Source of the DNA: Escherichia coli
GTDB lineage: Bacteria > Pseudomonadota > Gammaproteobacteria > Enterobacterales > Enterobacteriaceae
Direction: 5' to 3' (one strand)
NCBI RefSeq assembly: GCF_050920415.1
Contig: NZ_CP169309.1
Length of the DNA stretch: 64,000 nucleotides
The notes beneath the pieces were generated by a model that had not been told where the DNA came from, ran no database searches, and saw only the letters and a list, made by a program, of their open reading frames with translations. Made by a program: the position numbers and the translations under genes. This document shows, in pieces, positions 2,213 to 50,117 of this stretch. Each line of letters starts with the position of its first letter. Positions within the stretch are counted from its first letter, which is position 1.

Positions 2213-3085
2213 ATGCTGGCGTTTACCTGGATCGCGCTGCGATTTATCCATTTCACCTCGCTGATGCTGGTTTTTGGCTTCGCAATGTACGGTGCCTGGC
2301 TGGCCCCCTTAACGATTCGTCGCTTGCTGACGAAGCGTTTTCTGCGTTTACAACAGCACGCTGCCGTCTGGAGTTTGATCAGTGCCACTGCAATGCTCGC
2401 CGTTCAGGGCGGGTTGATGGGAACGGGATGGTCAGATGTATTTTCGCCAAACATTTGGCAGGCTGTTTTGCAAACGCAGTTTGGTGGCGTCTGGTTATGG
2501 CAAATTGTTCTCGCCCTCGTAACGTTGATCGTCGCCCTTATGCAACCGCGGAATATGCCACGTTTGCTGTTTATGCTCACTACCGCGCAATTTATTCTGC
2601 TGGCGGGAGTCGGGCATGCGACGCTGAATGAAGGGGTAACGGCGAAAATCCATCAGACTAATCACGCGATTCACCTGATCTGTGCGGCGGCGTGGTTTGG
2701 AGGATTACTTCCGGTGCTCTGGTGTATGCAACTCATCAAAGGCCGTTGGCGACACCAGGCTATTCAGGCGCTGATGCGTTTTTCCTGGTGCGGGCATTTT
2801 GCGGTGATCGGCGTACTGGCAAGCGGCGTGCTTAATGCATTGTTGATTACCAGATTTCCCCCCACGCTTACGACTTACTGGGGCCAACTCTTATTGCTCA
2901 AAGCCATCCTGGTGATGATTATGGTGGTCATCGCGCTGGCTAATCGTTATGTTCTTGTACCGCGCATGAGGCAGGATGAAAATCGTGCGGCTCCCTGGTT
3001 TGTGTGGATGACTAAACTCGAATGGGCGATAGGTGCGGTAGTGCTGGTGATCATCAGCCTGCTTGCGACTCTCGAACCTTTTTGA
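2213..3085 (+). CDS. copD: CopD-family inner membrane copper resistance protein
   Basis: ORF 290 aa, polytopic membrane protein, 3 nt after yobA stop (operon); matches YebZ/CopD. Confidence 0.9.
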   Translation: MLAFTWIALRFIHFTSLMLVFGFAMYGAWLAPLTIRRLLTKRFLRLQQHAAVWSLISATAMLAVQGGLMGTGWSDVFSPNIWQAVLQTQFGGVWLWQIVLALVTLIVALMQPRNMPRLLFMLTTAQFILLAGVGHATLNEGVTAKIHQTNHAIHLICAAAWFGGLLPVLWCMQLIKGRWRHQAIQALMRFSWCGHFAVIGVLASGVLNALLITRFPPTLTTYWGQLLLLKAILVMIMVVIALANRYVLVPRMRQDENRAAPWFVWMTKLEWAIGAVVLVIISLLATLEPF

Positions 3086-3097
3086 TGGATTACGAAA

Positions 3098-3439
3098 ATG
3101 ATGAAAAAAAGTATTCTGGCGTTTCTGTTACTCACCAGTTCTGCAGCGGCGCTGGCGGCACCGCAGGTGATTACCGTCAGTCGTTTTGAAGTGGGTAAAG
3201 ACAAATGGGCATTTAACCGCGAAGAGGTGATGCTGACATGCCGACCGGGCCATGCGTTGTATGTTATTAATCCGAGTACCCTCGTGCAGTATCCTTTGAA
3301 CGATATCGCACAAAAGGAAGTCGCCAGCGGGAAGACCAATGCCCAGCCCATTTCGGTGATTCAGATTGATGATCCTAACAATCCAGGTGAAAAAATGAGT
3401 CTGGCACCGTTTATAGAGCGAGCTGAAAAACTCTGTTAA
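3098..3439 (+). CDS. yebY: DUF2511 family secreted protein
   Basis: ORF 113 aa with signal peptide; third gene of yobA-copD-yebY operon. Confidence 0.85.
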
Positions 3440-46988: not shown

Positions 46989-47011
46989 AAATGGTATTTA
47001 AAATGCAAATT
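46989..47011. promoter_or_regulatory. candidate NsrR operator upstream of yeaR
   Basis: AAATGGTATTT-A-AAATGCAAATT resembles the 11-1-11 NsrR inverted repeat (AAGATGCATTT-N-AAATGCATCTT); ~70 nt upstream of yeaR. Confidence 0.45.
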
Positions 47012-47077
47012 ATCAGGCGTACCCTGAAACGGCTGAAATAAACTGTTTTCAGCACATTCATCGAAGGAGGGAAAAGG

Positions 47078-47437
47078 ATGCTGCAAATCCCACAGAATTA
47101 TATTCATACGCGCTCAACGCCTTTCTGGAATAAACAAACTGCGCCTGCCGGAATATTCGAACGTCATCTTGATAAAGGAACGCGCCCGGGGGTATACCCA
47201 CGCCTTTCCGTTATGCATGGGGCGGTCAAATATCTCGGCTACGCTGATGAACACAGTGCAGAACCTGATCAGGTGATCCTTATCGAAGCGGGGCAGTTTG
47301 CGGTGTTTCCGCCAGAAAAGTGGCACAACATTGAAACCATGACTGACGATACTTATTTCAACATTGACTTCTTCGTTGCTCCTGAAGTCCTGATGGAAGG
47401 CGCGCAACAACGGAAAGTCATTCATAACGGGAAATGA
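47078..47437 (+). CDS. yeaR: DUF1971 protein YeaR
   Basis: ORF 119 aa. Confidence 0.9.
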   Translation: MLQIPQNYIHTRSTPFWNKQTAPAGIFERHLDKGTRPGVYPRLSVMHGAVKYLGYADEHSAEPDQVILIEAGQFAVFPPEKWHNIETMTDDTYFNIDFFVAPEVLMEGAQQRKVIHNGK

Positions 47438-47440
47438 ATC

Positions 47441-47623
47441 ATGGGCAAAGCAACGTATACCGTGACCGTTACCAATAACAGCAATGGTGTTTCTGTCGAT
47501 TATGAAACAGAGACGCCGATGACTTTGCTGGTGCCAGAAGTGGCGGCTGAAGTGATAAAAGATCTGGTGAATACCGTGCGTTCTTATGACACGGAAAACG
47601 AACATGATGTTTGTGGTTGGTAA
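47441..47623 (+). CDS. yoaG: DUF1869 protein YoaG
   Basis: ORF 60 aa, 3 nt downstream of yeaR. Confidence 0.85.
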   Translation: MGKATYTVTVTNNSNGVSVDYETETPMTLLVPEVAAEVIKDLVNTVRSYDTENEHDVCGW

Positions 47624-47770
47624 TTATCACTGATCGTAGATGGCGCAATTTCTGCGCCATCGCAAAAAAATCCTCCGTGATGCTTGTCACAAATCTTGCC
47701 CTCCTGATGTTGTGCTATGCTTTTTATCAGCGACTAACCCGCTAATGCAAAACAGATAAGTGAGGAAACA

Positions 47771-48019
47771 ATGGGCATTCTGTCATGGATTATTTTTGGG
47801 CTTATTGCCGGTATTCTGGCGAAGTGGATCATGCCAGGTAAAGATGGTGGTGGATTCTTTATGACTATCCTGCTGGGAATAGTCGGTGCCGTAGTCGGCG
47901 GATGGATCAGCACGCTGTTTGGCTTTGGTAAAGTCGATGGCTTCAATTTTGGCAGCTTCGTGGTTGCCGTTATTGGTGCGATTGTCGTGCTGTTTATCTA
48001 CAGAAAGATCAAAAGTTAA
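47771..48019 (+). CDS. yeaQ: GlsB/YeaQ/YmgE-family small membrane protein
   Basis: ORF 82 aa, Gly-rich TM helices. Confidence 0.85.
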   Translation: MGILSWIIFGLIAGILAKWIMPGKDGGGFFMTILLGIVGAVVGGWISTLFGFGKVDGFNFGSFVVAVIGAIVVLFIYRKIKS

Positions 48020-48032
48020 CGCGTAAATTGCA

Positions 48033-48067
48033 CAAAGGCTGCACACAGGCAGCCTTTGCTATTTTTT
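48033..48067 (+). terminator. intrinsic terminator of yeaQ
   Basis: stem CAAAGGCTGC / GCAGCCTTTG followed by CTATTTTTT. Confidence 0.8.
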
Positions 48068-48077
48068 AGATGTGACG

Positions 48078-48152
48078 TTACCACCATCCCAACTCAGTGC
48101 CGAGAACGACAATAATCGCTACGCCCATCATAATAATCGTTGTTTTTTTCAT
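48078..48152 (-). CDS. yoaJ: small membrane protein YoaJ
   Basis: 24-codon ORF MKKTTIIMMGVAIIVVLGTELGWW read by eye on minus strand; not in ORF track. Confidence 0.7.
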   Translation of the reverse strand: MKKTTIIMMGVAIIVVLGTELGWW

Positions 48153-48154
48153 CT

Positions 48155-48253
48155 TTATGCTCCCGGGGCAGCATAGCCGCCAATAAAAAACCATGCTAAA
48201 AATACGACCGCTGTAATAAAGATTACAACCGGAAAAATAATACCGATTCGCAT
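48155..48253 (-). CDS. yoaK: small membrane protein YoaK
   Basis: 32-codon ORF MRIGIIFPVVIFITAVVFLAWFFIGGYAAPGA read by eye; stop 2 nt before the yoaJ ATG. Confidence 0.7.
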   Translation of the reverse strand: MRIGIIFPVVIFITAVVFLAWFFIGGYAAPGA

Positions 48254-48285
48254 GTTATCACCAATCAAAAGGATGTGAATACGCC

Positions 48286-49311
48286 TCAGGAATGTAGCAC
48301 TGAATGCGCGACAAAAGGTGTTTTCTGTTTGTGTTTTTTCTCCTGATACATCGCGATATCGGCAGCATGCAGGGCGCTGTCTGCATCGGTCGTTTCAGGA
48401 TCGACTTCTACTATGCCAAGACTGGCACCAGGATAATACAAATCAACATCACCTAAGTGATATTCTCCGCGTATTTGCTGTTGAATACGTTCTCGCAGCG
48501 ATGGAATATCCGCATTCTCATTGTTCAGTGAAACAACCAAAAACTCATCACCGCCGAGACGACCAATAACTTCGCCATTTTGCTGGAGCGTATTAAGGCG
48601 CTCGCCAACCTGAATAAGAAACAGATCGCCACTATTATGACCAAAACGATCATTGATTAATTTGAAGTTATCCAGATCGATAAATGCGATCATTATCTTA
48701 TGGTTAAGATGCCGGGCGAGGGAAAACAGCGTCGTCAGATTTTCAAAAATCGCCCGCCGATTTGGTAACCCGGTTAACGAGTCGGTATACGATTGCGCAA
48801 TCAGCGCGGCATTGGCTTCGCGCAGCTGTTCTACCAGCGCCTCTTTTTGAATATATTGTGCAATCAGTCCGGCGAATAACTGCAAAACCTGTTCCGCGCG
48901 TTCACTCCACTGGCGCTTCTCACTGCTGGCGGCGCAAAGCGTGCCATAGAATGATCCATCCGGTAAGTGAATTGGCGTGCTCAGAAATGTGGTGATGCCA
49001 AGATTGCGTGCCGCAATACAGTCGCCCCAACGGTCGGGGACTTCATCGCTGAAAAAGCAGTTTTCATCAATGGCGCGTTTGCATAACGAGTAATCCCACG
49101 AGACGGTAAAATTCTCCGGGATGTGCATTTTCTGGCTGTTACGGGCAAACATTATATGCTGCAGGCGCGCTTCGACATCCACTTTGGTCAGGTAGGTTGA
49201 TTCCATATCAGTGACCATTTCCAGCATCTCCAGAAGCTGTCGGACCAGACTTTCCAGTGACTGTTCTTTGGCAAGGGATTGCGAGACGCGGGCGATAATC
49301 TGATCTGACAC
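48286..49311 (-). CDS. dgcP: diguanylate cyclase DgcP
   Basis: ORF 48286..49440; GTG start giving (M)SDQIIARVSQ..., 341 aa; GAF-like N-domain and GGDEF motif RLGGDEFLVV. Confidence 0.9.
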   Translation of the reverse strand: MSDQIIARVSQSLAKEQSLESLVRQLLEMLEMVTDMESTYLTKVDVEARLQHIMFARNSQKMHIPENFTVSWDYSLCKRAIDENCFFSDEVPDRWGDCIAARNLGITTFLSTPIHLPDGSFYGTLCAASSEKRQWSERAEQVLQLFAGLIAQYIQKEALVEQLREANAALIAQSYTDSLTGLPNRRAIFENLTTLFSLARHLNHKIMIAFIDLDNFKLINDRFGHNSGDLFLIQVGERLNTLQQNGEVIGRLGGDEFLVVSLNNENADIPSLRERIQQQIRGEYHLGDVDLYYPGASLGIVEVDPETTDADSALHAADIAMYQEKKHKQKTPFVAHSVLHS

Positions 49312-49493
49312 GAAACAACTCCAGGATACGGCGGGTAAATGCTGATTATTTAATCTTTGCAGGCATGATAAAACATCATCAACAAAGATGAAACAAGGCG
49401 TAATATGATTTGAGTGAATGTAATAAAAATAGTGCTGCAAAACAAAACGATACCGCGATACTCTAAGCCTGGATAAATATGTGAGATCAATAA

Positions 49494-49748
49494 ATGAAAA
49501 TTATCAGTTTTGTTCTGCCTTGCTTGCTGGTCCTGGCTGGTTGTTCAACCCCTTCTCAGCCAGAAGCACCTAAACCGCCGCAGATTGGTATGGCAAATCC
49601 GGCGTCGGTCTATTGCCAGCAGAAGGGCGGGACGCTCATTCCTGTGCAGACAGCGCAAGGGGTCAGCAACAATTGCAAATTACCGGGCGGTGAAACGATT
49701 GATGAATGGGCATTGTGGCGACGGGACCATCCGGCTGGTGAAAAATAA
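49494..49748 (+). CDS. yoaF: DUF333 lipoprotein YoaF
   Basis: ORF 84 aa with lipobox LAGC. Confidence 0.85.
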   Translation: MKIISFVLPCLLVLAGCSTPSQPEAPKPPQIGMANPASVYCQQKGGTLIPVQTAQGVSNNCKLPGGETIDEWALWRRDHPAGEK

Positions 49749-49769
49749 CCGCCGGATGCTGCACTAAAA

Positions 49770-50117
49770 TCACAAGCTACGTAGCCAGTCGGCCAGCACC
49801 AGCGCATGGTTCTGCGTGGTGTTTTTTGCTGAGTAGAGCAGGGTCAGCGGCTGTTTTTTGGCGATGTCTGCCAGCCGCTTTCCTTCTTGCTCGTGTTGCG
49901 TCAGTTCTGCAAGATATTGCTCGCGAAAGGTTGCAAAATCGACGACTTCGCCGTGAAAGGCTTTGCGCAGTTCCGTTGACGGCGTGATTTCTTTATCCCA
50001 CTCATCAAGGGCTAAATCGGTTTTTTTGATACCGCGTGGCCAGAGGCGGTCGACCAGTACGCGATAACCATCGCTCTGTTCAGCCGGATCATAAACGCGT
50101 TTGCACTGAATATTCAT
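49770..50117 (-). CDS. yeaO: DUF488 protein YeaO
   Basis: ORF 49770..50138; start at MNIQCKRVYD... gives 115 aa. Confidence 0.85.
   Translation of the reverse strand: MNIQCKRVYDPAEQSDGYRVLVDRLWPRGIKKTDLALDEWDKEITPSTELRKAFHGEVVDFATFREQYLAELTQHEQEGKRLADIAKKQPLTLLYSAKNTTQNHALVLADWLRSL

Follow-up and report, generated by a model that had tools for sequence, protein, structure and literature searches.

The yoaK-yoaJ pair of Escherichia coli: two known genes for single-helix membrane peptides, co-transcribed with dgcP and probably translationally coupled

The small membrane proteins MgrB, AcrZ, MgtS, KdpF, and CydX are mostly encoded by single genes and modulate larger membrane proteins. They belong to the same set of small membrane proteins (PMC10470546) as YoaK and YoaJ, which resemble them in size (24-32 amino acids), in having one transmembrane helix, and in the near absence of a soluble part; in contrast to them, YoaK and YoaJ are encoded by a conserved gene pair without known partner or phenotype. 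The first identification of YoaK has been credited to Hemm et al. 2008 by Weaver et al. (bioRxiv 10.1101/511675), in whose work the chromosomally SPA-tagged protein was detected as an immunoblot reference and was referred to as "uncharacterized protein YoaK." An RNA-seq operon of three genes, yeaP-yoaK-yoaJ, is recorded in OperomeDB (PMC4620388). Regarding gene organization, the closest described systems are coupled cistrons of the ATGA/TAATG type, to which yoaK-yoaJ are alike in strand, transcript, a spacing of -4 to +3 nt, and a Shine-Dalgarno (SD) sequence within the upstream coding region; the difference is that for yoaK-yoaJ the dependence of yoaJ is predicted, and no inhibitory structure was detected around the yoaJ start.

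The window analyzed here (the whole stretch of E. coli DNA, 64,000 nt) carries the catalogued genes yoaK and yoaJ themselves, not relatives of them, and the pair was therefore already known. A first-pass annotation made from the sequence had read two tandem genes for tiny membrane proteins from the minus strand at 48078-48253, with stop and start 2 nt apart, and had named them yoaK and yoaJ. When the minus strand was re-read, these coordinates proved exact, running from the yoaJ stop to the yoaK start, and the 2-nt gap was recovered; the names are likewise correct, both genes being annotated by RefSeq at the same position ("YoaK family small membrane protein," WP_001219350.1, and "protein YoaJ," WP_001386836.1). 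The yoaK coding sequence occupies 48155-48253 on the minus strand (32 codons plus TAA) and reads MRIGIIFPVVIFITAVVFLAWFFIGGYAAPGA from its ATG at 48253 to its TAA at 48155, and the yoaJ coding sequence occupies 48078-48152 on the same strand (24 codons plus TAA) and reads MKKTTIIMMGVAIIVVLGTELGWW from its ATG at 48152 to its TAA at 48078; each encodes a small single-pass inner-membrane protein. The yoaK stop and the yoaJ start meet in TAAAGATG (48150-48157, minus strand). An in-frame ATG at 48194 would extend YoaJ to 38 amino acids (MVFYWRLCCPGSIKMKKTT..., 48078-48194, minus strand), overlapping yoaK; this extended form cannot be conserved, since the frame relation of yoaK and yoaJ varies among genera.

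Both peptides matched curated equivalog families over their full length: YoaK scored 69.1 bits against NCBIfam NF033821 (cut-off 32, E = 1.8e-19, residues 1-32 on profile 1-32 of 32), and YoaJ scored 60.4 bits against NF011343 / PRK14760 (cut-off 54, E = 1.1e-16, residues 1-24 on profile 1-24 of 24). Exact-sequence look-ups returned YOAK_ECOLI and YOAJ_ECOLI from UniProt, in agreement with the position between dgcP and yeaQ. A Pfam-A scan of the 32-aa YoaK returned no family, the copy of Pfam-A used being probably one without PF28021; PF28021:YoaK is present in the precomputed matches for the YoaK orthologues of Salmonella and Enterobacter (88-94% identity). Compared with E. coli K-12, both protein sequences are identical and the neighbors are the same (dgcP/yeaP upstream, yeaQ convergent); relative to K-12-type strains, the stretch containing the pair shows about 3% difference in DNA and none in protein. 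In K-12 the two genes carry the locus tags b4676 (yoaK) and b4675 (yoaJ). In an E. coli genome identical at 100%, the RefSeq gene order is yeaR, yoaG, yeaQ (+), yoaJ (-), yoaK (-), dgcP (-), yoaF (+). The first-pass annotation had also called the pair functionally uncharacterized, and here the literature agrees: both genes were still among those of unknown function in a 2022 paper (PMC9769844), and YoaK is described likewise in 10.1101/511675. The need for first-time validation that it implied is out of date, tagging, membrane localization, and conservation checks being largely published. We hold with high confidence the joint reading of the locus, namely that the known yoaK and yoaJ are distal cistrons of the dgcP unit, encode membrane helices, and are probably coupled.

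To place the pair among its relatives, an exhaustive HMMER search was carried out with YoaK, which gave 25 cluster representatives at E <= 1e-3 with a common core, M[RK].G..FP...F..A..F..WF..GGYA.P. When one genome per species was scanned under the guidance of a profile, 80 loci were obtained; they belong to Escherichia, Salmonella, Citrobacter, Enterobacter, Lelliottia, Leclercia, Huaxiibacter, Silvania, Pseudenterobacter, Klebsiella, Raoultella, Kluyvera, Pseudocitrobacter, Kosakonia, and Pluralibacter. Exact-protein look-ups added another five. Conservation of both frames and of their junction across Enterobacteriaceae, which had been proposed as a check, was borne out in 68 intact loci from about 15 genera. 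In these 68 loci, the window included, the YoaJ-like ORF following yoaK always has 24 codons, starts with M[KR]K[TS]T, and ends in G[W/C]W (GCW in one locus, GWW in all others). Every sampled yoaJ-like ORF lies directly after yoaK, within a search that covered the region downstream of yoaK. Values of pN/pS (Nei-Gojobori, all pairs of unique sequences) were 0.13 for yoaK (60 unique orthologues) and 0.29 for yoaJ, these pairwise counts, like the locus counts, not being phylogenetically independent; the shifted frames of the same DNA gave 1.1-3.3, and in the true frames the variation was concentrated at third codon positions. Judged by these substitution patterns, yoaK and yoaJ are protein-coding genes under purifying selection.

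A group of loci contains yoaK without a yoaJ-like ORF downstream (L067-L082 in our numbering; Kosakonia, Pluralibacter, and other Enterobacteriaceae, e.g., L069:3001-3096 and L067:3001-3096). Its YoaK proteins have the signature MRIGIAFPILVFIVAVAFLAWF..GGYATPGS (...AFLAWF[IV][IL]GGYATPGS), and their gene contexts differ; this YoaK-only clade may represent a paralogue, or else an orthologue after loss of yoaJ. One Pluralibacter locus of the clade (L070) has a dgcP homologue about 2 kb upstream. Two further loci bear indels in homopolymers. In the type strain of C. sedlakii (L014, ~3100-3110), six instead of seven A residues at yoaJ codons 2-4 shift the yoaJ frame; in the window, the corresponding ATG and A7 run at the yoaJ start read ATGAAAAAAACA (48140-48152). 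In a long-read assembly of C. amalonaticus (L019, ~3085-3095), an extra G in CCGGGGGGC (a CCGGGGG run) makes yoaK run into the next frame. These indels may be assembly errors or real homopolymer slippage.

The distance between the yoaK stop and the yoaJ start was confined to a few nucleotides in all 68 intact loci: 0 nt in 33, +2 in 23, -4 in eight, and +3 and -1 in two each, and it was never wider. The forms underlying these distances are TAAATG, TAAGTG, TAGATG, or TGAATG at gap 0, TAANNATG at +2, TAANNNATG at +3, TAATG at -1, and ATGA/GTGA at -4, with GTG as the yoaJ start in several lineages. In the window, the SD-like GGGAG of yoaJ (48160-48164, minus strand) is contained in the yoaK codons for Pro30-Gly31-Ala32 and precedes the yoaJ ATG by 7 nt. 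The duplex of the anti-SD with the 18 nt preceding the yoaJ start had -6.6 kcal/mol in the window and a mean of -7.3 kcal/mol over 65 unique paired loci, compared with -1.6 for background 18-mers. For the Gly codon at the end of yoaK, 57 of 64 paired loci use GGG or GGA, whereas 15 of the 16 YoaK-only loci use GGC or GGT, which form no SD; this is the pattern that would be expected if the yoaJ SD holds synonymous choice in yoaK. The SD-like sequence of yoaK itself is weak (GGTGA, 48258-48262, minus strand, 4 nt upstream of the yoaK ATG; duplex only -2.8 kcal/mol), and in Salmonella, Enterobacter, and Citrobacter yoaK is likewise preceded by GGTGAT or GGTAAT. The beginning of yoaJ is rich in A: 57 of 65 loci have AAA or AGA as the second codon, and of the 35 Arg codons at this position, 29 are AGA. 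AGA is a rare codon in enterobacteria, and A-rich starts favor initiation. Evidence that mRNA structure hides the yoaJ start was obtained neither by folding the single sequence against shuffles (z = -0.95) nor by folding the alignment, which was without covariation. RNAalifold proposed a pairing of the U-run of yoaK W21-F22-F23 with the A-run of yoaJ codons 2-4, which was rejected as unsupported by covariation; TTT predominates at F22 (86%) and F23 (83%) of yoaK, not more strongly than at F18 (82%).

The suggestion of the first-pass annotation that the two genes are likely translationally coupled thus gains support of a comparative kind, from a spacing that stays between -4 and +3 nt in all 68 loci and from the SD in the terminal codons of yoaK. 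The positional features of a coupled pair are all present, as the genes lie on the same strand and in the same transcript (PMC4620388) and keep their near-contact in relatives. Since the yoaJ SD lies inside the last three codons of yoaK and the ATG 2 nt past its stop, ribosomes finishing yoaK would most probably initiate again on yoaJ or expose its start. Either event at the yoaJ ATG would deliver both peptides at the same place and time and in a fixed ratio. We propose that yoaK and yoaJ are co-transcribed and, from these sequence features, probably translationally coupled.

The reading that has to be weighed most carefully against coupling is that both genes are real and co-transcribed but independently translated, their spacing being ordinary operon compaction and the roles of the peptides unrelated. 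The yoaJ SD is good in its own right (-6.6; mean -7.3 kcal/mol) and together with the A-rich start would allow de novo loading, and no structure sequesters the start (z -0.95, no covariation). Furthermore, the YoaK-only clade indicates that YoaK-like peptides can do without YoaJ, and the two peptides differ in their behavior toward the protease RseP and in their tabulated topology (see below). However, the junction state has changed at least four times and, apart from the -4 overlap, has never gone beyond 3 nt in 68 loci; that its form changed and yet never opened favors selection for closeness over selection for any one sequence. The finding of the sampled yoaJ-like ORFs always directly after yoaK, in a search made downstream of yoaK only, and the GTG starts of several lineages, which fit re-initiation better than de novo loading, also speak against independent translation, and we consider it unlikely, though with a real share of the probability. 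A second reading would make the pair a single gene, in which stop-codon read-through or a programmed frameshift yields a fusion of YoaK and YoaJ with 57 amino acids and two helices. Enterobacter, Lelliottia, and Leclercia do have both ORFs in one frame, interrupted by a single stop (TAAATG), and a fusion-like protein of 57 amino acids exists in the 50%-identity protein library (P0018, MRIGIIFPVVIFITAVVFLAWFFIGGYAAPEHKDEKTTIIMMGVAIIVVLGTELGWW), beside the read-through variant L019. The frame relation varies, however, gaps of 0 and +3 keeping the two ORFs in frame and gaps of +2, -1, and -4 putting them out of frame, while the yoaJ start codon and SD are kept in every lineage; the variants are homopolymer indels of the kind that assembly errors produce, and in a fused protein YoaJ would take the orientation opposite to the reported N-in/C-out (PMC10470546). 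This recoding model was ruled out by the differing frame relation among genera and is left with a minute probability. P0018 itself presumably stems from junction indels in some assembly. With probable coupling as the preferred reading, yoaK-yoaJ offer a clean testable case of co-production of very small membrane peptides, whose comparative value lies in the bounded junction, an SD apparently held by synonymous codons, retention of the pair after loss of dgcP, and a YoaK-only sister clade.

Upstream of the pair and on the same strand lies dgcP (yeaP; 48286-49311, minus strand), the operon-proximal gene, which codes for a GAF-GGDEF diguanylate cyclase according to Pfam (GAF and GGDEF) and RefSeq; 32 nt separate its stop from yoaK. 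The open frame containing dgcP reaches a TTG at 49440 (48286-49440, minus strand, 384 aa), and the RefSeq start is the GTG at 49311 (341 aa). A promoter-like match on the minus strand (48279-48252) was discarded, as its -10 overlaps the yoaK start codon and so cannot serve yoaK. On the other side, the convergent gene yeaQ (47771-48019, plus strand) codes for a membrane protein of the GlsB/YeaQ/YmgE family. Between yoaJ and yeaQ, the terminator scan identified a G+C-rich hairpin (48033-48058) with a stem of 10 bp and, after it on the plus strand, a T-run; this hairpin was the sole stable element in the RNA fold. A hairpin with a dG of -10 kcal/mol or lower occurs within 70 nt past yoaJ in 57 of 63 unique orthologous regions, often flanked by A- or T-runs. 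The hairpin in the window is probably a bidirectional intrinsic terminator, common with yeaQ, that ends the dgcP-yoaK-yoaJ unit. In the preferred reading, yoaK and yoaJ are the two distal cistrons of the dgcP(yeaP)-yoaK-yoaJ transcription unit, which ends at this hairpin, and each peptide inserts its one hydrophobic helix in the inner membrane.

In most genera dgcP lies directly upstream of yoaK. It is absent from four Salmonella loci (L002, L003, L032, and L040) and from four loci of Citrobacter sedlakii/amalonaticus (L014, L018, L019, and L021), in which yoaK-yoaJ persist with a tight junction between yoaF and yeaQ, about 160-200 nt from yoaF. When three of these loci (L002, L014, and L021) were aligned to E. 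coli, the yoaK-yoaJ flank aligned in all three and the yoaF flank in L002 and L014, and nothing aligned beyond these flanks. Retention of the pair in loci lacking dgcP indicates that yoaK-yoaJ are maintained without DgcP. Likewise, yeaQ adjoins the pair in most paired loci, and the linkage is not universal, since yeaQ is absent though yoaK-yoaJ are intact in Escherichia albertii NBRC 107761 (L011) and in loci of Klebsiella, Raoultella, Kluyvera, and Pseudocitrobacter (L062-L066 and L083-L086). In an Enterobacter locus (L005:4910-5002), a further gene for a small membrane protein (PF28073 YncL, 30 aa) lies about 0.7 kb past yeaQ, so that genes for small membrane proteins may cluster locally.

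Each peptide had been described in the first-pass annotation as having a single transmembrane segment, and this fits their hydrophobicity, the modeled helices, and the published topologies. The best 19-residue Kyte-Doolittle means were 2.79 for YoaK (residues 6-24) and 1.95 for YoaJ (residues 4-22). AF2 was run on a YoaK-(G4S)6-YoaJ construct with a paired alignment of 54 rows and placed helices at residues 3-24 and 63-82, numbered along the fusion, with a mean pLDDT of 60 and a pTM of 0.30; it gave no confident assembly and no usable interface information. Table S1 of PMC10470546 gives N-in/C-out by TMHMM for both YoaK and YoaJ, and experimentally N-in/C-out for YoaJ and "dual" for YoaK. In the same work, tagged YoaK and YoaJ were cleaved in vitro by the purified intramembrane protease RseP, and both were placed among the "class II" substrates on the grounds that the in vivo outcome was tag-dependent (PMC10470546). 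The dual topology of YoaK compared with the N-in/C-out topology of YoaJ, plus their differing behavior in the RseP assays, offers no argument for an obligate parallel heterodimer. The residues outside the bilayer are M-R and YAAPGA in YoaK and MKKTT and GWW in YoaJ. The tabulated experimental topologies presumably come from Fontaine et al. 2011.

Action of the peptides on the soluble DgcP is unlikely, since about 2-6 residues per peptide are exposed on either side of the membrane. Tethering of DgcP, which consists of GAF and GGDEF only and has no transmembrane segment, was discarded as physically weak, each peptide having about 2-5 cytoplasmic residues. We infer that the peptides most plausibly act by helix-helix contact in the bilayer, the partner being the other peptide or some larger membrane protein. 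The comparative picture in this way narrows the search for function to the bilayer and to roles independent of DgcP. A more specific proposal is that YoaK-YoaJ constitute an obligate heteromeric two-helix module, made at about 1:1 by termination-reinitiation and serving in stationary phase as accessory subunit of a larger membrane protein, such as YeaQ or a c-di-GMP-responsive membrane effector. If true, it would explain both the linkage to dgcP in most genera and the survival of the pair after dgcP loss in Salmonella; we regard it as a speculative and rather improbable proposal. The peptides could also be toxins of the type I kind (Hok, Ldr, Ibs, or TisB) checked by an antisense RNA, given their likeness as small, very hydrophobic single-helix peptides, which were screened beside Hok toxins as RseP substrates (PMC10470546). 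In contrast to those systems, no Rfam family was detected on either strand within 47000-50000 at E <= 1, the antisense RNA families included; the locus is single-copy and has no long structured leader, and it shows stable synteny in a housekeeping-type operon with a diguanylate cyclase across about 15 genera, under strong purifying selection. Toxicity of YoaK or YoaJ is not reported in PMC10470546 or 10.1101/511675, and a toxin function appears very improbable. Finally, short ORFs are abundant in this DNA, 53 of at least 20 amino acids overlapping the surrounding 2.5 kb in the ORF listing, so that the open frames of yoaK and yoaJ are by themselves not beyond chance. Both genes are raised above chance by the NCBIfam scores, the database identity, the frame-specific purifying selection, and the published protein detection (10.1101/511675, PMC10470546), to which constant lengths and conserved termini across genera can be added; the notion of chance frames in the dgcP-yeaQ intergenic region is refuted, with practically no probability left to it. 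The preferred reading remains that of two genuine membrane peptides, probably coupled in their synthesis.

Within E. coli the locus is single-copy per genome. Of 5426 complete E. coli genomes, 5418 matched a 1.9-kb stretch around the pair at 95% identity or more, including one at 100%, and 5403 contained the 216-bp core over 80% or more of its length. When 40 E. coli entries were sampled evenly down the ranking, yoaK and yoaJ were both annotated in 39. The sole exception was E. coli M24FEP (NZ_CM177972.1; L087, locus 1088-2601), in which an IS4-like element, ISVsa5, sits in the 3' end of yoaK. The insertion parts yoaK, there annotated as a pseudogene, from yoaJ and represents a rare natural knockout.
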